Below are positions 3,134 through 57,613 of a stretch of DNA of 64,000 nt, in pieces. The stretch lies in NCBI GenBank assembly GCA_964441565.1, contig CAYTWW010000004.1:35407-99406 (forward strand), read 5' to 3'. The translations under genes and the position numbers were made by a program. How positions within the stretch are numbered: the stretch's first letter is position 1; the number at the start of each line of letters is the position of its first letter. Under the pieces are notes generated by a model that worked only from the letters and a program-made list of their open reading frames with translations, searched no databases and was not told the origin of the DNA. This stretch comes from an uncultured Methanosarcinales archaeon (GTDB lineage: Archaea; Nanobdellota; Nanobdellia; Woesearchaeales; GW2011-AR15).

Positions 3134-3158
3134 TGACAGGTCAGGTGGGGAGTCTGCC

Positions 3159-5212: not shown

Positions 5213-6281
5213 GCCGTGCCTTTATTTTCTCTCTTGTTTCCATGATCCTATTGTACAGCGGCCTGTTCCCCCTCAGTTTCTGTATCGCTCTCTTGCGGAT
5301 ATGATGGATATGCTTCGCCAGGCCTGTGAAGACCTCAAGCTCATAGTTTGCAGAAGAATGGTTGCTGTATTCTGACTTGTAAGACTGATCTCCCCGAGTG
5401 AAGTCGAAGCATGTGATGCCTTCATCGATAGCATGCCTGATTATCGACAGCGTATTAGCATTCCCTGGGGAGACACGGCTGAACTCCTTGTCATATGTTA
5501 TCGTATAGCTGTAATATGTCCGGTCATAGATATAGATGACTTCTGATGCGATTATCCTATCCTTTTCAAATACTGTGAACAGCTGCATCATCCCTTTCTT
5601 CCAGAGCGAGAGGTAGAGTTCATGGAAGAATCTCTTATGCTTCGGGTCTGCGAAATAGCTTGGGCTTGCAGTGTTCTCCCATCTTTGGATGTGGAACCTT
5701 GCGAGGCTTGAGAAAGCATCCTCGAATCCTCTCTCATCGATCGCTTTGCTGAACCTGAAATCAGGCGATCTCATGAACATCTTGAGCTTGCGTCTCTGCT
5801 TGAATACAGCATGCTCCATCTTCTCAAAATCCTGTGTGGCATCAGGTCCTATCATGAACTGGAACGTGTCTGCGATATGCGAGATGAGTCCGATGCCATT
5901 CTCCTGGCAATAGGAAAGAATGCAGGACCCGCCGGGTATCTCCTGCAGGTGCATCCGTCTTCCTCCTATGGCTTTGAATATCTCAGGCAGCACATCCTGC
6001 GTATGGTCCTTGTGGATGATGAAGTCATTGTAGTCAGACAAGGGCGTGCCGAGGAATCTTGTCACTCCTCGCTCGACAAAGAGCGGAGCGATGCCCAGGA
6101 GCTTTCCTCCTTCTCGTACAGTGATGATCTCCAGCTTGCCCTCCATGAACTCCTTTGTCCACGCGAGTATCCAATCAGATGTCTGGAAGAATGTCCTGGT
6201 GGAAGAAGAATGCATGAGTCCATCCCACTCAGGCCTCAGGTCCTCCATCCCTGCCAAGCTTGTGACTATCTTGATTTCCAT
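5202..6281 (-). CDS. GNAT-fold acyltransferase of the FemAB/CelD (BioF2-like, Acetyltransf_6) type, putative glycan-modifying enzyme
   Basis: 359 aa. Overall architecture and size are consistent with CelD/FemAB-like proteins in polysaccharide loci. No catalytic motif verified. Confidence 0.45.
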   Translation of the reverse strand: MEIKIVTSLAGMEDLRPEWDGLMHSSSTRTFFQTSDWILAWTKEFMEGKLEIITVREGGKLLGIAPLFVERGVTRFLGTPLSDYNDFIIHKDHTQDVLPEIFKAIGGRRMHLQEIPGGSCILSYCQENGIGLISHIADTFQFMIGPDATQDFEKMEHAVFKQRRKLKMFMRSPDFRFSKAIDERGFEDAFSSLARFHIQRWENTASPSYFADPKHKRFFHELYLSLWKKGMMQLFTVFEKDRIIASEVIYIYDRTYYSYTITYDKEFSRVSPGNANTLSIIRHAIDEGITCFDFTRGDQSYKSEYSNHSSANYELEVFTGLAKHIHHIRKRAIQKLRGNRPLYNRIMETREKIKARLRH

Positions 6282-7222
6282 CTGAACCTCTCCAGGAAAA
6301 CATCTATGCCAGCGAGCTTAGCAGGCATGTCTTGAGGAGATTCATCGCCAGCCACATACACTCGCGGGATCATCATCCTATCACATTCGGTTGTCACGAA
6401 TCCTATCCTTGTTGTGAAAGCTGCTTCATATCCTGCCTTTTTCGCTGATACAGCTGTCTCCCTGACAAAGCCTCCGTCAGGATACGCCAAACTCCTGCAA
6501 GAACTAAGCCTCCTGGCAATGGTCTTGCGTGACAAGACCAGCTCTTCGCTTGCCACATCTGCTTCTTCATTGGGGAGGATGACGTGTGTCATGGTGTGCG
6601 ACCCATAGGAGAACACATCCTGGCATGCCTTCAGGTCCTTCCAGTCCATGAAGACCTTGCTCCTGGGAGTCTCTCGCGAGAAAAAGCTGAGGATGGAATC
6701 TATCTCACTTCTTCTGAGCTTTTTTAGTATCCTCCTGGCTTCTGCAATGCGATTGAAGCTGAGAGTGCCCTTGCTTGTCTTGATGGATCTATGCTTCTTC
6801 AGAGCATAATGCAGTATATCCCACCATGGCATCGCATCAGGACTATCCGCGAACCTGGGTACTATGAACACAGTCCCAGGTATCCCAAGCTCTTTCATCA
6901 CAGGATAGGCATTCTCCTTCAGATCAAGATAACCATCATCGAATGTCACGAGCACGCTTCTAGGAGGGAAAGGCTTCTCTGCCTTCAAATGGAGGAGGAA
7001 TCTGTCCATGCTCAGCACATCAAAATCCTTCAGGATCCCCATATGTTTCCTGAAGAGTCCTGGATCGACGCGGAGCGTCGGGTCTCCGATGCCAGGACTG
7101 CCTACCCTATGGTACATGAGGACTATCACCTTGCCTTCATTCTTCTTATAGAGGGCAGGGAGGAACGCAGAGATCATCCGTGAAGCGATCTTCTTGACAG
7201 CAGTTGTCATAGTCCTTTGCAC
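6266..7222 (-). CDS. Polysaccharide deacetylase (NodB homology domain, CE4)
   Basis: …RSVLVTFDDGYLDLKENAYPVMKELGIPGTVFIV… carries the canonical TFDDG motif of CE4 deacetylases. Confidence 0.75.
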   Translation of the reverse strand: MQRTMTTAVKKIASRMISAFLPALYKKNEGKVIVLMYHRVGSPGIGDPTLRVDPGLFRKHMGILKDFDVLSMDRFLLHLKAEKPFPPRSVLVTFDDGYLDLKENAYPVMKELGIPGTVFIVPRFADSPDAMPWWDILHYALKKHRSIKTSKGTLSFNRIAEARRILKKLRRSEIDSILSFFSRETPRSKVFMDWKDLKACQDVFSYGSHTMTHVILPNEEADVASEELVLSRKTIARRLSSCRSLAYPDGGFVRETAVSAKKAGYEAAFTTRIGFVTTECDRMMIPRVYVAGDESPQDMPAKLAGIDVFLERFRWKSR

Positions 7223-8010
7223 TTGCGGCAGATGTCGTTTGTGTACACCCCTTTCCGCAGCTCCTTCCTGAGGGTCTTGAATCTCTCACTGTTCCAGATG
7301 CTGACAATATCCTCATCCATGACGTTACCCAGCTTCACAGAGCTGAAATAGTCATTAGAGCACAGGATGACGTTTCCATCGACATCGATGAAGAGCGAGT
7401 TGAGATCGCAATTCGCAGAGAACTTCACCTTCTTCGGCTTCACCAGCCCCCCCCTGTTCGACAGCTCGCAGTCATCGTTGACGATGCGGTAGTCGATCCT
7501 CTGGGCTTCCCTCTTATCAAGGCTTCTCAGGAACTCTGACATTGCCTTTGGCATCTCCTTGTCATATTGGGAGATTATGAACTTGTCCATGCCGGCCTTT
7601 ACAAGCGAATCGAACCTCTCCCTGTCAAGGAGGTCGCCATTGGTATAGATGACTATCGTCGCTCCTGGAAGGGAATCATGGATGATCCTCGTTATCTCCT
7701 CAAGCCTCTTGTCAAGCAGCGGCTCTCCATAGAGATGTGGTGAGATCCAGCCGCTGTACCTTATCTGCTTCAGGTCTGCGGCCAGTTTCTCGACGACAGC
7801 CATCTTCATGAGCTGGTGCTTCTTCGGACTTGTGCTCACAGGGCAGAAATGGCATCTGCGGTTGCATGTGGTTATCGTCTGGAACTCGATGAATGAGAAG
7901 AAATCTGCAGTATGATACCTGATGATGTTGTTGAGACTGAAGTATGCCTTCTGGGCAAGCCTTGATTTGCCAAAGACCGCCTGGCCGATGCTGTAGATAC
8001 GTCCTGCCAT
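7207..8010 (-). CDS. Radical SAM / SPASM-domain protein
   Basis: CxxxCxxC cluster (TTCNRRCHFCPVS) near the N-terminus and a C-terminal Cys pair (…NDICRKCKGL). The size (~267 aa) and GDL motif are typical of the small rSAM/SPASM enzymes found in archaeal glycosylation loci. Confidence 0.7.
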   Translation of the reverse strand: MAGRIYSIGQAVFGKSRLAQKAYFSLNNIIRYHTADFFSFIEFQTITTCNRRCHFCPVSTSPKKHQLMKMAVVEKLAADLKQIRYSGWISPHLYGEPLLDKRLEEITRIIHDSLPGATIVIYTNGDLLDRERFDSLVKAGMDKFIISQYDKEMPKAMSEFLRSLDKREAQRIDYRIVNDDCELSNRGGLVKPKKVKFSANCDLNSLFIDVDGNVILCSNDYFSSVKLGNVMDEDIVSIWNSERFKTLRKELRKGVYTNDICRKCKGL

Positions 8011-8070: not shown

Positions 8071-10155
8071 CTAGACAGGGAAGTTCCTGTTATAGTATAT
8101 CATCATCTGCCCATTCGTGTAGATGAGATCAAGATCATCTGAACCTGAGAACTTGTCAAGCTTCTCATCTGGCAGGGGTTCGCCATATGAGAAGCTCGGA
8201 TAGATCTTCGTGTGGCTGTTGATGGCGAAGTAGCTTATCCCTGCCTGGTCCTTGGTATGCCTGTAGATTCCGAAATCAATATCTTCCTTCTGCAGCATCC
8301 AGCCAAGGTCTGAGGAGTTGGCCAGATAGAATTGCGACACCCAGAAGTCTGTCGTAACGTCGAAGCGGAATCTTGATGAATAGATGTCGAACACAGTCGT
8401 GTCTCCGAACAACCTCCGTGTCCTGGCGTTGGCATCCAGCCATCTGCCTGCCTCCACCAGCTCGACTGTATAGGTGCTTGCGCTCTCAAGAGGCAGGACC
8501 TCCCCTGCCTCCCTGTTGATGCCTGTCCCAAGGCCCAGGAATATGCCGCCTATGAAAAAGATGAGCGAGAGACCTGCAAGGGTCAGGAGAGGGAGGAGAT
8601 TCCTTACCCTCTGCTCGATGAAATGATATCCATATACGATGAAAAGACTTGGTATGAGGGAGAAGAATGGAAGAAACAATTGCACCATGACTGCAAGGCT
8701 GCTTGTCAGGAATACTGCTGTGAATGCATAATATGCGAAAGAAGCAAGAGCGAGGTATGCTATGAAATAATTGAGGTCCTTCTTCCATGACTTTGATGCA
8801 TAGACGGCAAAGCCTGCGAAGCTCGCCAGGACAAACAAGCCCTGCGAGAGGATTATCAGGTAGCGCTCAAAAGGCCTGCTGATATGCACAGATGATGAGA
8901 CTGCTGATTGCTCCAAATCTGCCAGACGGCTGAAGAAGCTCCCGATATTCTCTAAGAAGCCTTTTGCGTAGAGTATATCAGTAGTGAGGAGCACACCTGT
9001 AGCAGCCTCCCACACAAGGAATATTGCAGCGAACACCAGCACCTTCTGCCCCAGATGGAGGAATGACGAGCCTGCTATCGCCTTCTTCTGCTCAGGGAGG
9101 AGCCTGACCAGGATCTCCCTGAAGATATATGCTCCAATGAGTATCCCAAGGAAACCTATGCTTATCGAATGGTTCGAGATCACGATGAATACGGCGAAGA
9201 TATGATACAGATAGGACCAGATCACATCCTTGTCATCCATCTCCTTCATGGCCGCATATATCGCCATCATCAGGAAGAATAAGGAGATGGTCCTCCTGGA
9301 TATGCCAAGCTCAAGCCATTCTGATGTCATCAGGCATATGAATGTCGCAAGAGCTGGAGTGAAGCTTCTTGGCTTGGACATGAAAACAGAGAAGAACGTG
9401 TACAGTATGAACACAGAGGCCACCTTGAAAAGTATGAAGAGGATGTACTTTGAGACGAAGAATGGAGAAAGCCCAGTTACAAGGGCTATCGCTGCGATCA
9501 TGTAGTGGAGGACCGGGGTGTATCCATAGTAGTCCTGGGCGAAGCCTGTCCCGCTCTTCGCATCCAGCCTTCCCTGCTCGATGATCAGTTCTGCCACCTG
9601 GCTCTCGAAATTGACATCCTTCGCCATCTGGTGGACAGCTGGCATGCTGCCCAGGATTATCATGTTGCTGCCAAGAGCAAATATCAGGAGGCAGACCAAC
9701 TTCATATCGCTCTTGACTGAGACAAGGTTCCAGAGCGATACAAGCGAGAAGCCAGCCAAGAAGATCCAGACAGGAAGCGAGAAGCCAAGCGCTGTCTTGA
9801 ATGCGAATGAGAGGAGGATTATTCCTGCGACAAGAGACTGTATCAGGAGCTGCACCAGATCGACTGGCTCAGGCAGCCTGGATCGAGGAAGCTTCCTCAT
9901 AGAGAATATGATGAGGATGCCTATCTCGATAAGTATCAGCAAGAAGAAGGAATTCCTGGAGATCATCCCCTTCCCATCCACCTGGACCACTCCGAGGAGG
10001 AAGAGGACGACGGTATTCATGATGGCAGAAAGCAGGAACCCAAGAGAGATCTTCGAAGGGACATCCAACCCTCTGACAAGCACACTGATGAGAAGATATC
10101 CTGGGACAAGAGTCACGAGAAGCGTCGCCAGGATGACGATCAGAAAATTGATCAT
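8071..10155 (-). CDS. Large polytopic membrane protein (≥12 predicted TM segments plus C-terminal extracellular domain); candidate polymerase/GT-C-like enzyme (DUF2206-like)
   Basis: 694 aa, very hydrophobic N-terminal 550 aa and a soluble C-terminal ~140 aa. No WWDYG motif, so it is not called AglB. Confidence 0.5.
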   Translation of the reverse strand: MINFLIVILATLLVTLVPGYLLISVLVRGLDVPSKISLGFLLSAIMNTVVLFLLGVVQVDGKGMISRNSFFLLILIEIGILIIFSMRKLPRSRLPEPVDLVQLLIQSLVAGIILLSFAFKTALGFSLPVWIFLAGFSLVSLWNLVSVKSDMKLVCLLIFALGSNMIILGSMPAVHQMAKDVNFESQVAELIIEQGRLDAKSGTGFAQDYYGYTPVLHYMIAAIALVTGLSPFFVSKYILFILFKVASVFILYTFFSVFMSKPRSFTPALATFICLMTSEWLELGISRRTISLFFLMMAIYAAMKEMDDKDVIWSYLYHIFAVFIVISNHSISIGFLGILIGAYIFREILVRLLPEQKKAIAGSSFLHLGQKVLVFAAIFLVWEAATGVLLTTDILYAKGFLENIGSFFSRLADLEQSAVSSSVHISRPFERYLIILSQGLFVLASFAGFAVYASKSWKKDLNYFIAYLALASFAYYAFTAVFLTSSLAVMVQLFLPFFSLIPSLFIVYGYHFIEQRVRNLLPLLTLAGLSLIFFIGGIFLGLGTGINREAGEVLPLESASTYTVELVEAGRWLDANARTRRLFGDTTVFDIYSSRFRFDVTTDFWVSQFYLANSSDLGWMLQKEDIDFGIYRHTKDQAGISYFAINSHTKIYPSFSYGEPLPDEKLDKFSGSDDLDLIYTNGQMMIYYNRNFPV

Positions 10156-10547
10156 GGCTCCACCTCGAAATGTATCTCAAGATCGCCGGCGGACACTGAG
10201 ATCCGCTGATGGGAAGATGCAGCAGTGAATCTGGCAGCAAGTATTTGCGAGGCGCCTGGAAGCAAGGAGACTTCCTTCTCATACAACAAGGACTGGCTGC
10301 TCCCGGTGATCTGCATCGCTTTGACATGATAGGATTCCTTTGTCCCTCCTCTGTTGGAGATCATGAAGGCGAATGTCTGCTCTGTCCCTGGAACAGCTGT
10401 CCTTGGGAGGGATGCATGGTCCACAAACGAAAGCTCTGAGAAATCGCTTCCTCTGTCAAGGAGAGTGAACGATACATAGAGTATCGACGTGAGCGCAGAT
10501 ACAAGCAGGATGATGAGTACGCTTGATATGAGCTTTCTCTGCATCAT
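10152..10547 (-). CDS. Small N-terminally membrane-anchored protein (DUF1616-like partner of the upstream large membrane protein)
   Basis: 131 aa with an N-terminal TM (SSVLIILLVSALTSILYVSFTLL). Its stop overlaps the start of the 694-aa gene. Confidence 0.45.
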   Translation of the reverse strand: MMQRKLISSVLIILLVSALTSILYVSFTLLDRGSDFSELSFVDHASLPRTAVPGTEQTFAFMISNRGGTKESYHVKAMQITGSSQSLLYEKEVSLLPGASQILAARFTAASSHQRISVSAGDLEIHFEVEP

Positions 10548-10636
10548 CTCAAGCCTGATTCCTTAACATATAAATATTTCTGATTCACTTCTAATCAATG
10601 ATTAAATTTATATAGTTTTTACCTATCGGAGGAACG

Positions 10637-11881
10637 ATGAAGAGACTCTCCGGATTCCTTGCTGATAAGCTTGTCGCAAACTCTCTTCTGCTTATCATCG
10701 ATGCTGGTTTCATGGCAGGAGTAGGTTTCCTGTTCTGGAAGATTGTGACATATTTCCTAGATCCTGCTGAAGTAGGGATAGCTTCCACAGTGCTGTCTGC
10801 AGTGGCATTCCTCGCCAATCTTTCCCTTCTAGGTTTTGACATGGCGATAATCAGGCATCTCGCGAAGGCCGACGACCGGAGGGAACTTACGAGATCCCTG
10901 CTCAGCGCTACCACGATAGCAGCGATTATCGCAGGGGGCCTCTTCCTTGTCCTGACGGATGTTGTGGCGCCTAAGCTTGCGTTCCTTCTCGACCATGCCT
11001 GGCTCGCGGCTGCCTTCATCATGATCGTCGTCTTCAATACTGCCTTCCTGTTCATCGATGCCATTCTGATATCCAAGGGAAACATCTTCCATAAGCTCTT
11101 CAAGACTTCTGTCTTCAATCTGACGAAAGTCGGGACAGTGTTCCTCCTTTTTTCGATGGGCGCAGGAGGGATCCTCATCGGCTACGGAAGCTCAGTCGCT
11201 CTGGCTGTGGTCTTCTCTGTGGCAATGCTTTGGAGGACGCACGGCACAGACAGCATAACCCTGGGCTTCCCTAAGGTGAGTGTCATAAAGGAGTATGCAG
11301 GCCTGTCCTTCGCAAATTTCTTCTCCCGGGTCGTCTCGAACCTGCCGAGCGTGGCTCTACCTCTGATTGTCCTGTATCATCTCACACCAAGCGATGCGGC
11401 ATTCCTCAACATATCTGTCATGCTCTCCTCCATCATAGCAAATGTCTCAAGCGGGATATCTGCATCGCTCTTCTCATCTGGATCTGGCGATGATAACCAT
11501 TCCCCCTATATCAAGAAGAGCATCCTCCTCACTTTCGCCCTTCTCCTGCCGGCAATCGCATTCCTTGTCTTATTCGCAAGGCCGATCCTGGGCTTCTTCG
11601 GCGCAGAATACTCTGAGAATGCGCTTGATCTCTTCCGCCTGCTTTGCATCAGCCAGCTCGGCTTCGCCGTAGAATCGATAATCTTCATCGTCATGAACCT
11701 CAAGAAGGATGGTAAAGGCATAATCTCGATGACTGCTCTTGTAGCCCTCATCACGATCATGTCATCTCTGTTTGTGAAGGATCTCGGCATCGCATGGGTC
11801 GGTGTCTCATACATCATAGCATATGTGGTAGCGATCCTGGTGTTTGGAAACAGGCTGCTGGAGCATATGGACAATGCGTAA
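10637..11881 (+). CDS. Oligo/polysaccharide flippase (MOP superfamily, Wzx/PST-like)
   Basis: 414 aa with ~12 TM and the typical PST-family topology and composition. Confidence 0.65.
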   Translation: MKRLSGFLADKLVANSLLLIIDAGFMAGVGFLFWKIVTYFLDPAEVGIASTVLSAVAFLANLSLLGFDMAIIRHLAKADDRRELTRSLLSATTIAAIIAGGLFLVLTDVVAPKLAFLLDHAWLAAAFIMIVVFNTAFLFIDAILISKGNIFHKLFKTSVFNLTKVGTVFLLFSMGAGGILIGYGSSVALAVVFSVAMLWRTHGTDSITLGFPKVSVIKEYAGLSFANFFSRVVSNLPSVALPLIVLYHLTPSDAAFLNISVMLSSIIANVSSGISASLFSSGSGDDNHSPYIKKSILLTFALLLPAIAFLVLFARPILGFFGAEYSENALDLFRLLCISQLGFAVESIIFIVMNLKKDGKGIISMTALVALITIMSSLFVKDLGIAWVGVSYIIAYVVAILVFGNRLLEHMDNA

Positions 11882-15272: not shown

Positions 15273-15413
15273 GTTCTTCTTTCACGAGGAAGCTTTTGGC
15301 TTCCAGTGCCCAGGAAATCCCGGATTTCCTTGGGCTTTGACTCCACCTTTCTTTGGAAGATTCAAAGAAAGGTGGATTCTCTGGGTTCTTTGTCTTTTAT
15401 TGTATGTTAGAAT

Positions 15414-31306: not shown

Positions 31307-31468
31307 CCATTTTCTTTGGCTCCACCTTTATTTTATGGTTTAAAAGAAAGGTGGAATCTTTAGAATTATTCAAAGGAGAGCTTGCCATCAGAGAAAAAGT
31401 AGGACTTATTTTCTTCATACATGCTAAACTTCGTTACCATTAAATACACCTCCCTCCTCCTTTACTTC

Positions 31469-35253: not shown

Positions 35254-35694
35254 TCATCCTGCTCTCTTTGCGAGAAATCCGCCTATGCCTGCTAGCGCAG
35301 CCAATGCCCCAAGTGTGCCGAACTCAGGCGCATCCGGGATCTCATCTCCGCAGAGCGTGATATGGCTGATATCCTTGTTATCAAGGTCGCTCTTGTGAGA
35401 AGTACCTGAAGATCCGCCTGCATAGGTGTAGTAGTTCTGACCTCCTTTAGCTAATGCACCGTTCGCTCCCGGGCTTGATGTCCACAACGCAGTGGTTGCA
35501 TTGCCATCGATGCTCACCTCATAGCCGGATCTGACACCTTCTTCGCTGACCATGTATGAGTTCCCTGCCCACTCCCATTTCACGATGCCGAAGTCAAATC
35601 CCCTATCGATGCACTCTGAATCAGGAGAACCGACCTTGGCCAGACCACCAGAAGCAAGCATAAAAAATATCACAACCATCAGGATTTTCTTCAT
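35254..35694 (-). CDS. Secreted PEF-CTERM sorting-signal protein
   Basis: Signal peptide MKKILMVVIFFMLASGGLA. C-terminus …DAPEFGTLGALAALAGIGGFLAKRAG* (PEF motif, hydrophobic helix, basic tail). Confidence 0.8.
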   Translation of the reverse strand: MKKILMVVIFFMLASGGLAKVGSPDSECIDRGFDFGIVKWEWAGNSYMVSEEGVRSGYEVSIDGNATTALWTSSPGANGALAKGGQNYYTYAGGSSGTSHKSDLDNKDISHITLCGDEIPDAPEFGTLGALAALAGIGGFLAKRAG

Positions 35695-35728: not shown

Positions 35729-36322
35729 TCAATTCTTCTTTCTCTTGACAGAAAGATAAGCGCCAGCTCCGGCAAGCACAAGTGCTGCTCCGACTGTGCC
35801 GAACTCAGGAGCCTCGCCGTCAGGTGTTGGCTCGCTTATGCAGTATCCTCTCACTGCATCTACTTCGACAGCATCGTTCCAATCGTCGCTCTTGATCTTG
35901 ACATATCTTACTGACTGATAGGATGTGAAAGCGATAGATAGCTCGTCATCCCCCTTTCCATCTGTCGATCCGACATACTCCCATCCTGCGTTAGGCTGGT
36001 TTGATACATAGATATCCACATCAAACTCACGTGAGTTGTCCTGATAGACCTTGAAGTCGAATCCAAGCCTGTCCCAGACCTCTTCTCCTTCTCCCATATC
36101 CAGGACGATGTATGATCCTGCCTTGTTCAGATAAGCGTACCTGTTGTCATCCTCTCCGACAGCTTTCTGTGCATTTGTCACTGAACCGCTTGTCACTGCT
36201 ACTGCATTGGCATAAGCGATCTCATCATCTCCTGCCCAGTAAGCTCCCTTAGGGCAGCTGTGTGCCAGCACGCTTGTGGCGAGCAAGGCGAAGACAGCCA
36301 TTATCACGATTGATTTCTTCAT
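35729..36322 (-). CDS. Secreted PEF-CTERM sorting-signal protein
   Basis: GGAGG RBS, signal peptide MKKSIVIMAVFALLATSVLA. C-terminus …GEAPEFGTVGAALVLAGAGAYLSVKRKKN*. Confidence 0.8.
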   Translation of the reverse strand: MKKSIVIMAVFALLATSVLAHSCPKGAYWAGDDEIAYANAVAVTSGSVTNAQKAVGEDDNRYAYLNKAGSYIVLDMGEGEEVWDRLGFDFKVYQDNSREFDVDIYVSNQPNAGWEYVGSTDGKGDDELSIAFTSYQSVRYVKIKSDDWNDAVEVDAVRGYCISEPTPDGEAPEFGTVGAALVLAGAGAYLSVKRKKN

Positions 36323-36502
36323 GTTTTTTCCTCCACGGGGACGCATTGATTGTATGTTCCCCCTGATTAGGAGTTATTGAAGTGGAGCTATTATATATAC
36401 TTTTCGGAAATGTTATTACTTTGGAATAGTACCATGTTATGATGTAGTCTTGATAGAGAATCAGCATTGCCTATTTACAAATTAAGAATGAGCAAAAAAA
36501 AA

Positions 36503-36994
36503 TTAATTCTTCCTCTTCCTGGCAGCATATACGCCAGCGACTGCGAGGAAAGCACCTGCTCCGAGCACGGTGAACTCAGGGATGAATGCTGTACCAGTCT
36601 CCTGGACCTTGACATTATCTCCTTCCATGCCATTCACGACATAAGCGAATGATCCGCCCATGGCGTTTTCTGTCTCGAGCATGATGACTCCGCATCCATT
36701 CTCATTGGTAGGTGTGGTTACGACTGTAGCTTTGAAGACATTTGTATCAGTATCTACTGCATCAAAGCAATCAGCGTCGTCGTTTCCGTCAAAGCAGTAG
36801 TCAGTGATGACCAGTGGCATACCAACAATAGGTGTTGATCCTTCAACATCGTTTTTATAGATGCATGCATCTACATAGACGGTGTCATCTGATTCCATGC
36901 CAACATCATACGGATTCAGGATTATCTCTGTTCCTGCAAGAGCAGTCGACACCATGACGAGTGCCATTGCCATAAAAGCCATTGTCTTATTCAT
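36503..36994 (-). CDS. Secreted Cys-rich PEF-CTERM sorting-signal protein
   Basis: GGAGGT RBS, signal MNKTMAFMAMALVMVSTALA. C-terminus …TAFIPEFTVLGAGAFLAVAGVYAARKRKN*. Confidence 0.8.
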   Translation of the reverse strand: MNKTMAFMAMALVMVSTALAGTEIILNPYDVGMESDDTVYVDACIYKNDVEGSTPIVGMPLVITDYCFDGNDDADCFDAVDTDTNVFKATVVTTPTNENGCGVIMLETENAMGGSFAYVVNGMEGDNVKVQETGTAFIPEFTVLGAGAFLAVAGVYAARKRKN

Positions 36995-37145
36995 GTTTCT
37001 TGACCTCCAAAAGGGATTGTGATTACTGTATATTGTGATTATTACCCCCTATATTTGGTTAGATAACTCCTAAGTTATATATAAACTTTTCCGTTATTCA
37101 TTAGTTAGTGACAATATCATATGTCGTAATATTTATGCACAGTTC

Positions 37146-37736
37146 CTACCAGAATTGGAAGCTCTGCGTATAGACGACAAAGAATCCAAGTGCGAGATTC
37201 GCCACAGCATGCGCTATTATGCATGGACCGATGCTTTTCCTTTTGAAATATAGGAGATTCAGAAGAGCTCCTGTCAAGAGGCCGGCCAGCCATCTCGTAT
37301 GAGAGAAGCCGAAGAACAGAACTGTGATGATGAAGCTTGGAAGTGTAAAACCTGGCTTGACCTTCCTCCAGTCCTTATCAATTATCCATCTGAGCAGGAA
37401 TGACCTTGTGAAGAACTCCTCAACTACAGGAGCAAGGACCACACCTGTCAAGAGCTTCAGAGCGATGTCCAGGGATGTGTAATCATATATCACATCTGGT
37501 CCGGTCTTTGGATAGAAAGGATCTAGGAGAACCCAAAGCGCGAAGATCGCGATTCCCAGCGCTACTGCGAGCACATCGAACGTGATCCTGAACTTAAGAT
37601 CCCTCCTGTATATATATAGACATACAGAGACTGCAAGTATCTTGAAGATCAGGGCCACTGTCAGGTTTCCAGTCAGATAATGAGCTAGAGGGAATGAGAA
37701 CAGGTAGACTGCGAATGTCACGATGAGAGGTATCAC
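37146..37736 (-). CDS. CPBP-family (CAAX protease / Abi, PF02517-like) intramembrane metalloprotease, candidate sorting protease for neighbouring PEF-CTERM proteins
   Basis: 196 aa, about 6 TM. All three CPBP motifs are present in order: EExxxR (VVEEFFTRSFLL), FxxxH (FGFSHTRW), HxxxN (IAHAVANL). GTG start, with a TATA ATTTTATATAGG ~25 nt upstream (37756-37767). Confidence 0.75.
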   Translation of the reverse strand: MIPLIVTFAVYLFSFPLAHYLTGNLTVALIFKILAVSVCLYIYRRDLKFRITFDVLAVALGIAIFALWVLLDPFYPKTGPDVIYDYTSLDIALKLLTGVVLAPVVEEFFTRSFLLRWIIDKDWRKVKPGFTLPSFIITVLFFGFSHTRWLAGLLTGALLNLLYFKRKSIGPCIIAHAVANLALGFFVVYTQSFQFW

Positions 37737-37797
37737 AACTATATGTTAGGAAATCCTATATAAAATGGTTTCTGTCGACAGTCTATTTGGCAGCTAA

Positions 37798-37819
37798 TTC
37801 ACTATCTAGCAATAGTGAA
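37798..37819. promoter_or_regulatory. Perfect inverted repeat TTCACTAT-CTAGCA-ATAGTGAA in the divergent CPBP / PEF-CTERM intergenic region
   Basis: 8-bp arms with a 6-bp spacer, between the two divergent TATA boxes (37756-37767 and 37838-37848). Candidate operator. Confidence 0.4.
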
Positions 37820-37876
37820 AAACATAGATTTAAATATAGCGGATGTTTTTGCCATCTTCATCAAGGGGGTAGACCT

Positions 37877-38353
37877 ATGAAAAGAACAATAATCCTGTTC
37901 ATGCTCATGATTGCTTCCGTAATGGCGGAAAGCATCCAGCCTATGGCATGCGATCCATTCGCCCCATCGGCAGAATTCGAAGAGGGAGCAGACATCTGCT
38001 TCTACGGCACAGGCTTTGATGAGCCAGTCGACCTTGCTCTGAGGGACAAGGCCACAGAAGAGGAGGTAGGGACCATAATCGATGCTGATGTCGACAATGG
38101 TGTCCTGAGCACTGTCTTCTCAGGCAGGTTCTTCGAGAATGTGAAGGCTGGCATCTACAGGCTCTTCATCAATCTCAGAGACAGAGACCTTGAGTACTCT
38201 GAAGACATCGTAGTGAGAGGCCAGATGGCTGATGACGATGACGATGATGACGATGATCCGACTGATCCTTCAGTCCCTGAATTCGGGACGATAGCTGCGG
38301 GCCTTGGCCTTATTGGCGCTGGAGCATATGCTGCAAGGAGGCGAAGGATATGA
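37877..38353 (+). CDS. Secreted PEF-CTERM protein with poly-Asp (D9) acidic tract
   Basis: GGGGGT RBS, signal MKRTIILFMLMIASVMA. …GQMADDDDDDDDDPTDPSVPEFGTIAAGLGLIGAGAYAARRRRI*. Confidence 0.8.
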   Translation: MKRTIILFMLMIASVMAESIQPMACDPFAPSAEFEEGADICFYGTGFDEPVDLALRDKATEEEVGTIIDADVDNGVLSTVFSGRFFENVKAGIYRLFINLRDRDLEYSEDIVVRGQMADDDDDDDDDPTDPSVPEFGTIAAGLGLIGAGAYAARRRRI

Positions 38354-39291
38354 GAAAGATACTTTTCATACTAGCTCTGCTCTCAGCTGCAGTGTTGGCA
38401 GATTGCGACCAGGTCGCTTGCCTCAATCAGGCTGAGAAAGCATGGTGCTCCCCAGGAGACTCTGCCTGTGTATTCTCTGAATGCGGCTTTTTTGAAGAGA
38501 GCGATGCAGATGGAGACAGCTGGACAGACAGCTGCGATGCATTCCCACAGGATGCTTCAGAGCAGGTGGATTATGACGCAGATGGCTGCGGCCACAACTC
38601 AGACATCGACGATCTCGACCATTCTGAAGTCTCTGGCTGTGAGGTCATCACAGACGATGATGACGATGATGACGATGACGACACAGAGGATACAGACGAG
38701 GATGGCATCGAAGACGAGTCTGACAACTGTCCAACTGTCGCAAACCCTGACCAGGCAGATAATGACGGAGATGGCCTAGGCGATGCATGTGACAACTGTC
38801 CTTCGACATCAAATCCTGACCAGGCAAATGCTGACGCAGACGGAACAGGCGATGCTTGCGAAGTTGTCGAGAAGAAAGAAAGCATCAGCTCAGGGAGCGG
38901 AGGAAGCGGACTAGGCACAGGCATCTGCATGTCAAGGGCATGGAGATGCGGTGAGTGGTCAGCATGCGAAGAAGGAACGCAGACAAGGACCTGCGATCAG
39001 ATCAACTTCGACTGCAAGGGTGACGAGAACAAGCCAAAGGAATCGCAGACCTGCGAGATGCCTGTCGAAGAAGTGATCCAGACACAGGACCAGCAGTCTG
39101 AAGAGACGGAAGAAGAGACCCAGGAGGAGACGGCAACAGTCACTCCTGTAAAGGAAGATAGTGCAGGGCTTTCAGGCATCACAGGAAATGTGATAGACGT
39201 GCCTAGGGGAGAATTCAACCCATGGATCCTGCTTCCAGTGTTCCTCGGCGGACTCTTGCTGATCTTCCTGTTCTTCAGGAAGAAGAACTGA
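38350..39291 (+). CDS. Secreted Cys-rich thrombospondin-type-3-repeat (Ca-binding) surface protein with poly-Asp tract and a C-terminal TM/basic anchor
   Basis: Signal MRKILFILALLSAAVLA. TSP3 repeats DNCPTVANPDQADNDGDGLGDACDNCPSTSNPDQANADADGTGDAC. D10 tract. C-terminus …NPWILLPVFLGGLLLIFLFFRKKN*. Confidence 0.7.
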   Translation: MRKILFILALLSAAVLADCDQVACLNQAEKAWCSPGDSACVFSECGFFEESDADGDSWTDSCDAFPQDASEQVDYDADGCGHNSDIDDLDHSEVSGCEVITDDDDDDDDDDTEDTDEDGIEDESDNCPTVANPDQADNDGDGLGDACDNCPSTSNPDQANADADGTGDACEVVEKKESISSGSGGSGLGTGICMSRAWRCGEWSACEEGTQTRTCDQINFDCKGDENKPKESQTCEMPVEEVIQTQDQQSEETEEETQEETATVTPVKEDSAGLSGITGNVIDVPRGEFNPWILLPVFLGGLLLIFLFFRKKN

Positions 39292-52210: not shown

Positions 52211-55200
52211 CTACATTCTGAGCAGCTCGTAGACCTGCTTCTCCTGCCGAATCATCTTCAGGGATGAGAACAGCTCAGACCTGGTGCTGCATGGGATCTC
52301 CAGGCAGTGCTGGTCAAGGAATGACCTGATCTCTCCACTGTTCCTGTAATACTCGTACTCATTGTCAGCCATGTATGGAAGCGCCAGATACAAGCCCTCA
52401 AGGCTATGGAGAGGGAGCCCTGACAAGAGCTGCAGAGGCATCTCAGCCTTCTTCCGGAAGTCCAGGTTTATCACATTCTCAGGCAGTTTGAGGACAGAGC
52501 TCTTCTGAGGTTCGAATTCTCCCAGATAGATATTGTATAGCACCCTGTACATCTCGAGCCTGGAGTCAGATGACATGAGGACCTTTGCGACATCAGGCCT
52601 CCCGACAGACTCTGAAACCCACTGCTGAACAAGGCTTGTGTTCGAGAGCATCCTGAAGCTGTCCTCGCTCATCGCATGCAGGTGTCTGGCAAAGTCATAG
52701 AGAGTATGGGCCTCGCTGCCCTCGGGAAGGACAAGAGGCCTTGCTGCCTTCTTTGTCATGAGCTTTCCGTCTGCTGGCCTTTTCTTGTGTCCCCCTCTGC
52801 CGAAGATGAAGAAGAGTATCGAGCAAAGTAGACATACGACCAAAAAGCCGATTATCGCATCAGCGTGGCTGTTCTTTGCCTGCTTCGGCTCTTCGATCGA
52901 GGAGGACTTCTCTTCGAGCCTCACTTCCTGCTGCTCAGGTACGACAGGTATGGAAGGCTGCTCCATCACAGGAGGACTTGATGTCTTTTCGATTATCTCT
53001 GGTTCTGGCTCTGCTTTTACCACAGATGAACGGCTGAAGCTGCCTCCACCGCCGCCACCACCGCCGCTGCCTCCGCTGCCTCCGCTGCCGCCACCACCGC
53101 CGCCGCTATCACCGCCGCTTTCCTCCTCTTCGACAGCAGCAGTTGCAAGGCTGTATTCAGTGAAATGAGGCACATCAAAGCTGACATTCTCACCTAGCGA
53201 GATGTTCTCGCATATCGGGCAAGGCAGGCCGTCTTTTAGTATGACAGGGTCTGCGAGAGTGACATGGTAGAATGTAATCCTTGCGCTGCGGTTGAGGACT
53301 GGCACCAGTGAGGAATTGATGTATACCTTCCTATCCTCTATCCCGACAAATGAATCCAGGTCGACTGCAGTGACATTGACCTCTCCTCTCAGATTTATCC
53401 TGCCATGGTCAGATATCTCTAGCGTGATCCCCTCGAAAGTCAGGTTGTTCCTATTGAAGTCAGTAGTATGTCCATCAAACTTAGATGCATTCGGATAACC
53501 GGGATCATTGCTCCTTGTTCGTAGGTTGTGGACACCTGAGCTGTAAGCATTCCCATATCTATCAGTCCCATTCACCTTCCAATAATAGTCAGTGTCATTC
53601 TCAAGACCAGTGGCTGTCATCTGGTGGCTTGTGGCCTTTGCTGTGGAATGGAGATAGCTGGGAGCTGACAGGTCCGCATATGTCGAGATGAAGAGGCTAG
53701 CATTCCCTGATTCGTTCAGCGTAAGAGATACCCTGAACCTGTCTGATGAGATGGAGTTGTTCGATATCGCTATGATCGCAGGCGGAGTGATGTCCTCTGG
53801 CTCATTCTCAAGAGTCCGGAAGAAAGAGCTGTTGGTTATGCAGTTATTGTGCCTGTCGCACGTCGTCACATTGAAGTCATAAATAGCGTTGGCTGTCAGG
53901 TCTTGAAAAAAAAAAGTATGCACAGTAGTATAGACTGAGTCGACGACTGTGCCAAGGATCGTCCAGATGGTAGAGTTCGTGGCCTCATTTGTGATGATTG
54001 TGATCTGGCCAGTCTGGTTTGTCGTGATATTCTGATGGATCAACTCAGGATAGCTGATATCCTCCCCGGAACCGGTGATCACATAGTAGTTCGAGTTCTG
54101 GCCGGTTGTTATGTCGAAAGTCACCATGTTGCCTGAGACTGAGAGGACAGGCACGTCAGATCCATCGTCCTTCGTGATTATGAATCCCTGGGTCAGCGAA
54201 AGGTCAGAGCAGTCCACAGTCACTCTCCTTGTCTTAGGTACATCGATATACGGATCCCGCTCCATCGTGTTGGCTGTGAGGACTATTCTTTCTGACGAGA
54301 CCCTGAGATGTGCCTGTGTAGGTTGGTCTGATTCGAATAAAGTTTTTTCTCCGTCATGTATGTATGTTGCATTGAATGCAGCTATCTCTCCAGCCGAATA
54401 TGCGAGCGCCCATCCATCAGTCGACTTGCCTGCATAGGATACTGTTCCATCATTGTCTCCGTCAAAGAGGACTGTGTTCCCTCCGTCAATGAGGCCTTTC
54501 TCAGTCCCATTGATAGCAGTCACTCCCTCTTCAGAGAAGGTGTTCCAGTGATGCGAGAATACAAGGTCCAGGGAAGGATCGCCGATGTCTGTGTAGTAAT
54601 AGCGCCTCCCATACTTGCCGAGGCCTCTGGACCCGCCTGAACAGCTTGTCTTGGAGAAGCAGTAATTTACATTGGTCCTCCCTCCGCCGAAATACACTGG
54701 CGAATCAGAATAGATGAGCTGCGTGGACAGGAAGATGTCCTGGCCAGTCGCAGCATTAGTCCTCCTCGCAGTCCAGTTGAGCCCGCTCACAGTAGATGCG
54801 AACTCATCATCGATGTTGATGAAGTTGTGATAGATGCGGTCCCCCTGCGTCACACCTGACACCTTTGTCCTCTTGACCACTGTGTCGCCGAACTTCACGA
54901 AATACTCCTTCACAGGATCAGCCTTGTAGTACGGACGCCACACGAATGCGCCGGCGAGATTCGCGTCCGCAGTACCCATGTAATCCTCGATGTCGCCGCC
55001 GTACTGCAGTGGAAACTGGCGGAAATTAGGATAATCGGCAGGATAAAGTGCTGGATCACATGTTTTCATTCCATAATACTGGTTTTGTCCATGTTCTCCA
55101 CATTCAGACCTGTAATAGCTTACTAACCCCTCGACATTCTGTGTGTCGTTCGCTAAGCTGATTCCATTTTTCCAGAAATCTGCCCTTGTATCATCTTCAT

Positions 55201-57613
55201 ATGGGACTTGCTCGTAATCAATAAATGGCTCCCCCAGGATATAAAGATAATAGCCCTGAGCTTGGGAGTGTCCCATCCCTCTTTCCTCACCACCATCAAT
55301 CATCAGAAAAGTGTCATTGGAGAAAGTATAGTTCGTCCTCACAATCAAGGTGTCTTCTGCATTGTCAAATACGATTTTTGGCATAGCAGACTCTGGAGCC
55401 TCTTCAGAATCAACTGAGTCAAGGATCTGCTTGTAGAGATATGAGAGAGGATATGTTCTCATGGCACTCGATTCAGATATGTTGAAAGCATACTGTCTAA
55501 TCCAAAGTGATGTCTTCTTAGTGTTCAGGTCATCGCACATCAGAGCAAAGAAAAGCGGAGTATCCCACCCTGTGAACAAGCTGTCGTCGATCTTCTGATA
55601 GCTGTTTGAATCTCCTTTTTGCACTGACCTAAGGTAAAAAGGCTCATCATTTCTGGAATCTGACCCTTTGTAGTTACCATCAAGCAGCATAACAATATGC
55701 TCTCTTGCCATAGCACAAAAGGCATTATTATACTCTTCAATATCTATGAGCGAGTTCCGATATCTCATCCAAAGGACATCAGCTAGGTGAGGAAAAGCAT
55801 AAGTTCTGTAACCATATCCTTCCTGATACATATGCCAGGAGTCATTCTTGTATGACTGAAGTATCTTGTCTTCCCTGTCCATCCATTCATCTGGTATGTT
55901 CTTGCCCCAGTACTGGTCGCTGAGATTATGGATAAGAGTAGGGTTCTCGGCATACTCTCCGATGAAGCTATAGCAGAATCCACCCATCCCTGATCCAAAA
56001 GCCAATCCATTGTCCCCTGCAATCAAAGCGTCATTGTCGAGATCAGGGCGATCTCCGGGATGGTTAACGAACAGCTGGCAGATATCATGAGCTTTTCGCG
56101 AAAGATCCTCCTGCTCCTCTTGTGTAAAATAGGGAACCATCATATCATAGGCAATAGCAACATGAAGGTATTGATGGAACGCCTGGTTGGAAGTGAATGA
56201 CGAGAGGCTCCTGTTCAGCCAGCCATGTATGTGATCACTTGCAACCTTACAATTGTTTGTGTTTTCATATCCATTATGCATACAACTCATTGCAGCCTGG
56301 CGTGCATTCACAGCATAGGGGTCAGCGCTGTCTCCTGAATATCCTTCATTCCAGTCGGAGGATACAAAGTTATTAATCCAATTGCAGGAGTCATAAGCCA
56401 CCTCGTTTTCTGGATCAGAGCAAAAAGGGATGTAGGAATTATACTCATCAAGTGAGAAATGAAACCATGGCCTGTCCTTGAAGGGGATGTAGATCCTTTG
56501 GGCATTGTTATCCTCAACATCCTCCTCTACACTATCGTCAGTATCAATCTTAACAAATCCTGAATGCCATCCATATGACTTCTCCCAATTGCATATTATC
56601 TCTGTTTCTTCCATCCCTGAAAGAGAAAGGCTGTCTTCACATAAAACAGTTCCATCCATATCCACTTTGTAGACGAAGGGTCCGGTTGGCTCTGATCCAG
56701 CGTTCCTTATAATGATTGAGAGAGGCATTTCACCTATTGGATCTAGAAGATTACTTCCAGTGTAGTCTCGTGGCAAGGTGTACCTGATAGATTTAACATA
56801 AATATCTTTTTCAGGAGGCGAACCAAGTCGTTCCTCATTGTAAATTGCCTGGACATCTAATGTAGAGAAATTGCTTCTTCTCCAGATTCTCAGCTCATCT
56901 AGGTAACCTACAATATCCTGAGAAAATATCCCTGCTCCAACTCTTAGCATGCTCCCAGAAGTCATATTTGGGGTACCGAAGGGTGTGCTTGAATTCACAA
57001 CCAGTTCTCCGTTCTTCCATACATAGCTCCTCTGTTTGTCATATTGTAGGAAGTAGAAAGTCCATTGATCTGTAGGTGACTCCTGAGTATCCCCTGGAAA
57101 AGCTTTCACTTCACCTCCTTGCGCCCATACATGAAGGTTCATCCCATAGCCTGCTTCAGTCACATGCAGGTATTTAGGCCCTCCACAGCATCCTTCATGC
57201 CCGATATCCATAATGTCAAAAGAGTTTGCTCCTGAGACCGAAATAGTTGGATATAACCAGAAAGCCACTGCAATGCCGTCCGAAAGCTGAAATTTACTGG
57301 ATGAGTTGAGATAGTCAGCACCACCATCAGCAGAGAAATCAGCGCACCCGTTAATCTTGGATTGTGCTCTATCAAGCCATTCACCTGAGCGAAATGGAGT
57401 AAACTCGTGATCGTAGCCGGAATAATCCGTCCATGGCGATGAAGAATCATCGAAAGTCAGGTTCAGTACAAGATCAGATGAAAATGAGGAGCTAGCGGGA
57501 AAAATCACAAAGGCATCAGGTTTGAAACCAAGGAGATACACCACAGCCAGGCATGCACTGACAAGAAAGATGAGTGCAAATATTTTGAATATCCTTATTC
57601 CCCCTGCCATCAA
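52211..57613 (-). CDS. Giant (1800 aa) type-I membrane surface protein with an N-terminal LamG/ConA-like domain, a polysaccharide-lyase-like (heparinase II/III-like) central region, a Gly/Ser linker, a single TM and a ~190-aa cytoplasmic tail
   Basis: N-terminal signal/anchor MMAGGIRIFKIFALIFLVSACLAVVYL. …EEEESGGDSGGGGGGSGGSGGSGGGGGGGGSFSR… linker. TM AIIGFLVVCLLCSILFFIF followed by a basic stop-transfer. Domain calls are inferred from sequence patterns only. Confidence 0.5.
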   Translation of the reverse strand: MMAGGIRIFKIFALIFLVSACLAVVYLLGFKPDAFVIFPASSSFSSDLVLNLTFDDSSSPWTDYSGYDHEFTPFRSGEWLDRAQSKINGCADFSADGGADYLNSSSKFQLSDGIAVAFWLYPTISVSGANSFDIMDIGHEGCCGGPKYLHVTEAGYGMNLHVWAQGGEVKAFPGDTQESPTDQWTFYFLQYDKQRSYVWKNGELVVNSSTPFGTPNMTSGSMLRVGAGIFSQDIVGYLDELRIWRRSNFSTLDVQAIYNEERLGSPPEKDIYVKSIRYTLPRDYTGSNLLDPIGEMPLSIIIRNAGSEPTGPFVYKVDMDGTVLCEDSLSLSGMEETEIICNWEKSYGWHSGFVKIDTDDSVEEDVEDNNAQRIYIPFKDRPWFHFSLDEYNSYIPFCSDPENEVAYDSCNWINNFVSSDWNEGYSGDSADPYAVNARQAAMSCMHNGYENTNNCKVASDHIHGWLNRSLSSFTSNQAFHQYLHVAIAYDMMVPYFTQEEQEDLSRKAHDICQLFVNHPGDRPDLDNDALIAGDNGLAFGSGMGGFCYSFIGEYAENPTLIHNLSDQYWGKNIPDEWMDREDKILQSYKNDSWHMYQEGYGYRTYAFPHLADVLWMRYRNSLIDIEEYNNAFCAMAREHIVMLLDGNYKGSDSRNDEPFYLRSVQKGDSNSYQKIDDSLFTGWDTPLFFALMCDDLNTKKTSLWIRQYAFNISESSAMRTYPLSYLYKQILDSVDSEEAPESAMPKIVFDNAEDTLIVRTNYTFSNDTFLMIDGGEERGMGHSQAQGYYLYILGEPFIDYEQVPYEDDTRADFWKNGISLANDTQNVEGLVSYYRSECGEHGQNQYYGMKTCDPALYPADYPNFRQFPLQYGGDIEDYMGTADANLAGAFVWRPYYKADPVKEYFVKFGDTVVKRTKVSGVTQGDRIYHNFINIDDEFASTVSGLNWTARRTNAATGQDIFLSTQLIYSDSPVYFGGGRTNVNYCFSKTSCSGGSRGLGKYGRRYYYTDIGDPSLDLVFSHHWNTFSEEGVTAINGTEKGLIDGGNTVLFDGDNDGTVSYAGKSTDGWALAYSAGEIAAFNATYIHDGEKTLFESDQPTQAHLRVSSERIVLTANTMERDPYIDVPKTRRVTVDCSDLSLTQGFIITKDDGSDVPVLSVSGNMVTFDITTGQNSNYYVITGSGEDISYPELIHQNITTNQTGQITIITNEATNSTIWTILGTVVDSVYTTVHTFFFQDLTANAIYDFNVTTCDRHNNCITNSSFFRTLENEPEDITPPAIIAISNNSISSDRFRVSLTLNESGNASLFISTYADLSAPSYLHSTAKATSHQMTATGLENDTDYYWKVNGTDRYGNAYSSGVHNLRTRSNDPGYPNASKFDGHTTDFNRNNLTFEGITLEISDHGRINLRGEVNVTAVDLDSFVGIEDRKVYINSSLVPVLNRSARITFYHVTLADPVILKDGLPCPICENISLGENVSFDVPHFTEYSLATAAVEEEESGGDSGGGGGGSGGSGGSGGGGGGGGSFSRSSVVKAEPEPEIIEKTSSPPVMEQPSIPVVPEQQEVRLEEKSSSIEEPKQAKNSHADAIIGFLVVCLLCSILFFIFGRGGHKKRPADGKLMTKKAARPLVLPEGSEAHTLYDFARHLHAMSEDSFRMLSNTSLVQQWVSESVGRPDVAKVLMSSDSRLEMYRVLYNIYLGEFEPQKSSVLKLPENVINLDFRKKAEMPLQLLSGLPLHSLEGLYLALPYMADNEYEYYRNSGEIRSFLDQHCLEIPCSTRSELFSSLKMIRQEKQVYELLRM

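Follow-up and report, generated by a model that had tools for sequence, protein, structure and literature searches.

Among the C-terminal sorting signals described in prokaryotes, PEP-type tails are assigned to exosortases and the PEF-CTERM signal to archaeosortase C (a passage of PMC5244752 that cites Haft 2012). CPBP proteins are connected with such tails in two ways. Fusions of an exosortase with a CPBP domain were read as a functional link already by Haft et al. 2006 (PMC1569441). Among the CPBP proteins known as myxosortases, MrtX was shown to cleave MYXO-CTERM both in M. xanthus and in E. coli (PMC11980579), and MrtJ forms a two-gene cassette with a JDVT-CTERM protein (bioRxiv 10.1101/2023.06.07.544157). 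In this work we analyse a CPBP gene which is located among four genes for secreted PEF-tail proteins in a 64-kb stretch of the archaeal contig CAYTWW010000004.1 (hereafter the window). Judging by its sequence, the product of this gene is most likely an active-type glutamic intramembrane endopeptidase of the subfamily TIGR03008, a branch of CPBP proteins that travels with exosortase/archaeosortase sorting systems. The gene neighbourhood that links it to PEF-tail genes is conserved and not a coincidence. For the comparison, 80 loci were gathered from reference genomes and 44 from metagenomes; the L-numbers used below are labels of these related loci.

The CPBP protein and its described relatives

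The window CPBP matches the TIGR03008 profile (pepcterm_CAAX, “CAAX prenyl protease-related protein”, a CPBP subfamily associated with PEP-CTERM and exosortases) with 121.5 bits against the curated cutoff of 81.05 (E 4.6e-35, residues 36-196). The general PF02517 profile is matched with 57.4 bits, the gathering threshold being 22.4. Length, helix count and motifs are the same as in TIGR03008 members, and, as in the bacterial members of the subfamily, the next gene after the CPBP gene encodes a small secreted protein that carries a Pro-Glu-X tail. The differences concern the host, which is archaeal, the partner tails, which are of the PEF type with a Gly/Ala-rich helix and not of the PEP type, and the surroundings: the PrsK/PrsR/PrsT regulatory genes of Geobacter loci are absent here, and no exosortase is seen in ~80 kb of the contig. 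The best homologues come from organisms named Candidatus Woesearchaeota (61% identity), and NCBI names Woesearchaeota homologues as the TIGR03008 product. The metagenome-assembled genome (MAG) GCA_016935095.1 has surrounding genes in common with the window (OapB, OapC, GTPase and TatD). On these matches, the source is probably a Woesearchaeota-like archaeon of the DPANN group; in the JGI data its contig is Ga0255812_10557809 (86 kb). The whole family is large, with 4,019 cluster representatives at E <= 1e-3.

All three CPBP motifs are intact. EExxxR is read in VVEEFFTRSF (E106, E107, R111), FxxxH in FGFSHTRW (F142, H146) and HxxxN in IAHAVANL (H176, N180). Across the 102 relatives gathered in this analysis, E106, E107, R111, H146, H176 and N180 are kept in 101 proteins and F142 in 100. 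Because its motif residues are so widely kept, the protein looks catalytically competent, as had been predicted from the same motifs in the preliminary description of this gene. The same description called the protein a minimal metalloprotease, and both words have to be corrected: enzymes of the CPBP type belong to the glutamic intramembrane endopeptidases rather than to the metalloproteases (PMC11980579), and a length of 196 amino acids (aa) is ordinary for the subfamily, in which archaeal relatives have 192-211 aa and the TIGR03008 profile has 222 positions. A reading of the protein as an immunity protein or a degenerate protein of the abortive infection (Abi) type was also considered. It was rejected in view of the conservation of the catalytic residues across the family.

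The open reading frame (ORF) has a GTG start and contains no internal Met. The gene call of JGI (P0001) places the start at 37721, 15 nt further in, which gives a protein of 191 aa. As homologue alignments begin with the first residue of the 196-aa version, 37736 is to be preferred as the start.

The AlphaFold2 model of the protein is very confident, with a predicted local distance difference test score (pLDDT) of 96.6 and a predicted template modelling score (pTM) of 0.91. Sequence and profile searches of PDB with the protein gave no match, even at E <= 10. This includes Rce1, the type II CAAX prenyl endopeptidase (MmRce1, PDB 4CAD), with which the window CPBP shares the EExxxR, FxxxH and HxxxN motifs. 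It differs from Rce1 in having seven helices against eight, and its presumed substrates lack a CAAX box.

Another described relative is TIGR04162, the exosortase E/protease of the VPEID-CTERM system. The whole window CPBP aligns to the C-terminal CPBP half of this profile (positions 328-513 of 516) and scores 69.3 bits against a cutoff of 150. It is a stand-alone protein of 196 aa without the N-terminal exosortase domain and does not belong to TIGR04162. Related archaea encode both halves as neighbouring genes (L115).

The myxosortases (MrtX, MrtC, MrtJ, MrtS and MrtA) resemble the window CPBP in its predicted fold, in catalytic motifs, in the three-part signals of their partners and in the position of the enzyme gene beside its presumed targets. 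However, the window CPBP failed all the myxosortase models: it scores 16.8 bits with NF040914 (Mrt_core, cutoff 100), 37.7 with MrtJ (cutoff 75) and 20.3 with MrtS (cutoff 130). Moreover, myxosortase signals carry an invariant, presumably lipidated Cys (bioRxiv 10.1101/2023.06.07.544157), which is missing from the PEF tails.

The remaining systems to compare are archaeosortase C with PEF-CTERM (TIGR03762/TIGR03024) and PEFG-CTERM (TIGR04296). Here the likeness is on the side of the neighbouring genes, whose products have a PEF motif, a transmembrane (TM) helix and a basic cluster. In addition, a sister clade of longer CPBPs is found beside tails at or near the TIGR03024 cutoff, and the archaeal exosortase-family neighbours described below partially match archaeosortase C. 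In contrast, the tails encoded in the window remain below every curated cutoff, and the window contains no archaeosortase gene.

Conserved neighbourhood of PEF-tail genes

The four tail proteins encoded around the CPBP gene (146-205 aa) combine an N-terminal signal peptide with a C-terminal sorting signal of three-part architecture, namely the PEF motif, a Gly/Ala-rich TM helix and an Arg/Lys cluster (Table 1). All four genes for tails of this architecture that occur in the window lie at most 1.9 kb from the CPBP gene, and no further PEF-type tail genes were found elsewhere in the window. Cys is absent in and next to the PEF motif of all four tails. The protein encoded divergently from the CPBP, whose gene the preliminary description called a poly-Asp PEF-CTERM gene, has a run of nine Asp and a PEF tail.

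The linkage was counted in 34 non-redundant archaeal-type loci, each with at least 800 bp of flanking sequence. A PEF-tail gene is located within 2.5 kb of the CPBP gene in 20 of these loci and is directly adjacent to it in 18. The density of PEF-tail genes is 0.57 per kb at 0-0.5 kb from the CPBP gene and falls to 0.03-0.04 per kb at 3-10 kb. Orthologues of the flanking genes recur across loci in one order: TSP3 (thrombospondin type-3) protein, poly-Asp PEF protein, CPBP, 163-aa PEF protein. In L002, L007, L011 and L088 an orthologue of the 163-aa protein is encoded downstream of the CPBP, either directly or at a short distance, and L009 and L089 have one in the vicinity. Orthologues of the 313-aa Asp-rich protein occur in L002, L011 and L086. 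As the start of the latter gene overlaps the stop of the upstream poly-Asp gene by 4 bp, the two are probably co-transcribed.

The type of tail varies with the CPBP clade. Short CPBPs are accompanied by Gly/Ala-rich PEF tails, and a sister clade of CPBPs of 277-309 aa by canonical PEF-CTERM tails (24.8 bits in L119 and 22.9 in L122, the TIGR03024 cutoff being 23).

Table 1. Positions of the CPBP gene, the neighbouring genes, the promoter elements and a possibly related module in the window
Feature	Position	Strand	Remarks
CPBP (Rce1-like) glutamic intramembrane endopeptidase	37146..37736	-	196 aa, 7 predicted helices, TIGR03008
Secreted poly-Asp PEF-tail protein	37877..38353	+	158 aa, signal peptide, run of nine Asp, tail PEFGTIAAGLGLIGAGAYAARRRRI; orthologues in the same divergent position in L002, L011, L086, L087
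Asp-rich TSP3 protein	38350..39291	+	313 aa, thrombospondin type-3 repeat (PF02412, 26.5 bits), C-terminal TM anchor without PEF motif
Secreted PEF-tail protein	36503..36994	-	163 aa, tail IPEFTVLGAGAFLAVAGVYAARKRKN; directly downstream of CPBP
Secreted PEF-tail protein	35729..36346	-	205 aa, tail APEFGTVGAALVLAGAGAYLSVKRKKN; weak F5/8 type C match
Secreted PEF-tail protein	35254..35694	-	146 aa, tail APEFGTLGALAALAGIGGFLAKRAG; orthologue in L002
Possibly related module	8071..11881		694-aa 14-TM protein (8071-10155, -) and Polysacc_synt flippase (10637-11881, +)
Perfect palindrome	37798..37819	.	TTCACTAT-N6-ATAGTGAA, spacer ctagca; 8-bp arms, 100% complementary
TATA box of the divergent PEF-tail operon	37830..37837	+	TTTAAATA, 39 nt upstream of the ATG at 37877
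TATA-like box of the CPBP gene	37757..37765	-	TTTTATATA, 20 nt upstream of the GTG; consensus reading
Second perfect 8-bp inverted repeat	37818..37850	.	AAAAACAT-N17-ATGTTTTT, brackets the TATA box

Two short elements were observed in the leaders of PEF-tail genes. A perfect 10-bp direct repeat ATTGTGATTA is present twice at 37016-37041; the two copies start at an interval of 16 bp and fall within the stretch from the TATA box to the ATG of the gene for the 163-aa protein. The leaders of the orthologous genes in L002, L003, L007, L011 and L088 have not conserved this repeat. A GGGGGTA(GAC) element is located ~30 nt downstream of the TATA box in several leaders (37866-37875, ~37046-37054, and ~10800-10815 in L011). 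In some of the leaders it is separate from the Shine-Dalgarno sequence beside the ATG.

Exosortase linkage and the possible role of the CPBP

Bacterial homologues of the window CPBP are encoded in XrtA/PEP-CTERM loci together with PrsR (TIGR02915), PrsT (TIGR02917) and EpsB_2 (TIGR03013), and in three of the loci with an exosortase (TIGR02602). A gene for a PEP-CTERM protein of ~200 aa often comes directly after the CPBP gene. In archaea, a gene of the exosortase/archaeosortase family (PF09721, TIGR04178) is located 0.1-2.6 kb from the CPBP gene in five lineages (L115, L109-111, L112, L126 and L134, the last being the Woesearchaeota MAG GCA_016933095.1). These archaeal proteins reach only the general TIGR04178 signature; at the subfamily level they match best the exosortase half of TIGR04162 and, partially, archaeosortase C. 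A protein search with the archaeal exosortase family gave at least 14-22 matches. All 24 aligned sequences have the Arg and the His, and at least 90% of them have the Cys of the C-S-G motif.

About 20 of the 150 best family representatives have 469-560 aa with the CPBP match in the C-terminal part, and all six representatives that were scanned (374-560 aa) are exosortase-CPBP fusions scoring above the TIGR04162 cutoff.

In L134 (3139-4862), a gene with weak ICMT (isoprenylcysteine carboxyl methyltransferase)/DUF1295 matches adjoins the CPBP gene, ~1.5 kb from the gene for a 511-aa exosortase-family protein. The pairing of an ICMT-like protein with a CPBP recalls the eukaryotic Rce1-ICMT pair.

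Since the subfamily is fused to exosortase-family enzymes or encoded next to them, the window CPBP may be a partner of such an enzyme rather than the sorting enzyme itself. We lean, with moderate confidence, towards a PEF sorting pathway of the archaeosortase type in which the CPBP is the partner protease. It would then correspond to a split form of the exosortase-protease fusions and act on the membrane-embedded tails of the proteins encoded next to it. We infer the substrates, the presence of an archaeosortase gene in this genome and the order of steps as follows. The tail proteins would be exported by Sec and held in the membrane by the C-terminal helix. An archaeosortase-family Cys enzyme, presumably encoded elsewhere in the genome, would then recognise the PEF motif. 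The CPBP would act on the same membrane-embedded tails, where it may make or complete the cut, or else clear the released anchor peptide. The preliminary description had treated the CPBP and its divergent neighbour as a protease and its substrate. This pairing is not established, as the CPBP may instead be the partner of an exosortase-family enzyme.

Several observations weigh against a partnership with an archaeosortase. Neither an exosortase nor an archaeosortase gene was detected in the window or in the contig flanks added via L131 and L132 (~80 kb altogether); in the window, the search combined Pfam on multi-TM ORFs without an earlier Pfam family with a local hidden Markov model on all ORFs of at least 80 aa. 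The 694-aa protein and the flippase of the possibly related module have homologues in L115 and L138 (tblastn, 27-31% identity, E 1e-27 to 1e-51), where the two genes form an operon with a gene of the exosortase family; there is no exosortase gene beside these operon-partner homologues in the window. Most archaeal loci have PEF-tail genes beside the CPBP gene and no exosortase within 10 kb. The tails of the window proteins stay below the cutoffs of all curated models, with no match to TIGR03024 (cutoff 23), 12.9 bits with TIGR04296 (cutoff 25) and 11.5 bits with TIGR02595 (cutoff 16). Finally, we know of no TIGR03008 member that has been characterised experimentally, so any specific biochemical role is a conjecture.

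The main alternative to the archaeosortase partnership is that the CPBP sorts the PEF tails without an archaeosortase. In Woesearchaeota which have the cassette and no exosortase gene, a stand-alone TIGR03008-type CPBP would be the enzyme that both cleaves and sorts PEF-tail surface proteins, similar to a myxosortase except for the Cys-free signal and encoded beside its substrates as MrtJ is beside the JDVT-CTERM protein. MrtX and MrtJ, introduced above, set a precedent for such an activity. The directly adjacent PEF-tail genes in 18 of 34 loci, compared with exosortase genes nearby in only five lineages, point the same way, and so do the ~80 kb of contig without an exosortase gene, though operon-partner homologues are present. 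We nevertheless consider this role unlikely. The protein fails the myxosortase models, these tails lack the Cys that is invariant in known myxosortase signals, and the subfamily is pervasively fused or adjacent to exosortases. PEF-tail genes are also found beside exosortase-family genes with no CPBP in the 8-10 kb flank (L136 and L139), and the exosortase missing here was looked for in only a limited portion of the genome.

If its role had nothing to do with the tails and its link to the genes of surface proteins were a loose one, the CPBP could be an immunity or Abi-type protein, could serve a cell-envelope enzyme as a scaffold or regulator in the manner of SpdC, or could be a membrane protease of a generic kind. 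Immunity and regulatory proteins are indeed numerous among prokaryotic CPBPs, and VanZ-like and BacA (undecaprenyl-diphosphatase) genes adjoin the CPBP gene in L003 and are located 6 kb away from it in the window. Yet the catalytic residues are all conserved across the family, PEF-tail genes are ~15-fold enriched beside the CPBP gene, the tail type co-varies with the CPBP clade, and fusions with exosortases exist, which together make a role of this kind quite improbable.

The window CPBP belongs to a family already named by annotation pipelines, and the conserved CPBP-PEF cassette of DPANN archaea is a useful but incremental addition to what is known of it. As far as we know, the function of TIGR03008-type CPBPs has not been demonstrated, and they constitute a large family tied to exosortases (2,376 representatives at E <= 1e-10). 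The compact cassette of one CPBP and four PEF-tail proteins with no exosortase nearby provides a simple setting in which to ask what the protease does. If stand-alone sorting were true, it would extend the myxosortase principle to a Cys-free PEP/PEF-type signal and to DPANN archaea and would give a first function to a family with thousands of members. By their sequence features, the window tails are a lineage variant that the current curated models miss, and the surface proteomes of DPANN archaea are therefore likely to be under-annotated.

The possibly related module contains one more gene. It codes for a 131-aa DUF1616-like protein and is located between the gene for the 14-TM protein, which has no Pfam match, and the flippase gene.

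The divergent promoter and its palindrome

The CPBP gene and the poly-Asp gene share an intergenic region of 140 bp (37737-37876). The preliminary description had reported a perfect palindrome in this region, located between two TATA boxes, and had proposed that it co-regulates the protease and its substrate. The palindrome is real and lies where it was said to lie. Relative to the PEF operon it is upstream of the TATA box at a distance of 10 nt, and 32 nt separate it from the TATA box of the CPBP gene; both boxes are consensus readings made straight from the sequence. The promoter was compared with its orthologues in L002, L011, L086 and L087. The TATA block AGATTTAWATATAG of the PEF operon is conserved in all five promoters (alignment A4), and in L086 and L087 A/T-rich TATA-like boxes precede the CPBP start by a comparable distance. 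The 20 nt between the TATA-like box and the GTG of the CPBP gene would imply a leaderless transcript or one with a very short leader. For the second inverted repeat, a similar AAAACA...TGTTTT pair is present in L002.

Proteins that activate or repress archaeal promoters use positions just upstream of the TATA box. The palindrome could accordingly be an operator for a dimeric transcription factor co-regulating the CPBP gene and the divergent PEF operon, and its perfect 8 + 8 bp dyad and its position 10 nt from a conserved TATA box would suit such a site. At least one perfect 8-bp inverted repeat with a spacer of up to 10 nt appears in 3.3% of shuffles of the 140-bp region (P = 0.033), and at least two such repeats with a spacer of up to 20 nt in 0.2% (P = 0.002). 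A loose ACT-N(4-10)-AGTG pattern is common to four of the five promoters and has the same relative place in L002, L011 and L086, but its spacing ranges from 4 to 10 nt. The palindrome itself is not conserved in the four orthologous promoters, where the strongest inverted repeat ahead of the TATA box is not significant (shuffle P 0.09-0.97). The whole window contains 45 comparable 8-bp repeat centres, and the 8-bp palindrome alone is therefore weak evidence. Even with three mismatches allowed, its pattern occurs once in the window (one or more matches arise in 23 of 100 shuffles), with no second copy and no half-sites near other PEF genes, and no regulator gene is adjacent to it.

Because the palindrome is unique in the window and not conserved in the four orthologous promoters, a role as an operator and the proposed co-regulation through it are unsupported. 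It is possible, though doubtful, that the palindrome is a transcription factor site, perhaps one serving the divergent PEF operon. The palindrome itself adds little to the picture of the locus.

In L002, the closest NCBI relative, a gene for an 85-aa ribbon-helix-helix protein (9560-9817) with CdrS-, ParD- and NikR-like matches is inserted upstream of the CPBP gene. Ahead of the inserted gene there is a perfect 10+10 palindrome, TGTAATACTA|TAGTATTACA, at 9529-9560. No homologue of the ribbon-helix-helix gene is present in the window, which also speaks against the operator.

Scans of the window with Rfam (gathering thresholds) and for tRNA genes found nothing. An inverted-repeat arm TCCACCTTT... 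occurs in two intergenic regions, 15342-15390 and 31321-31360, and may be a shared terminator or regulatory element. Further along the window, a gene for a 1,800-aa protein with a Laminin_G_3 domain (52211-57613) is located inside a large region of glycosyltransferase, flippase and acyltransferase genes, which points to a heavily glycosylated surface. L132, which comes from the same organism in another sample and corresponds by homology to the stretch immediately left of the window, encodes at 2524-7648 a methyl-accepting chemotaxis protein, a CheW-response-regulator fusion and a PAS sensor. Such chemotaxis genes are unexpected for a small genome of the DPANN type.

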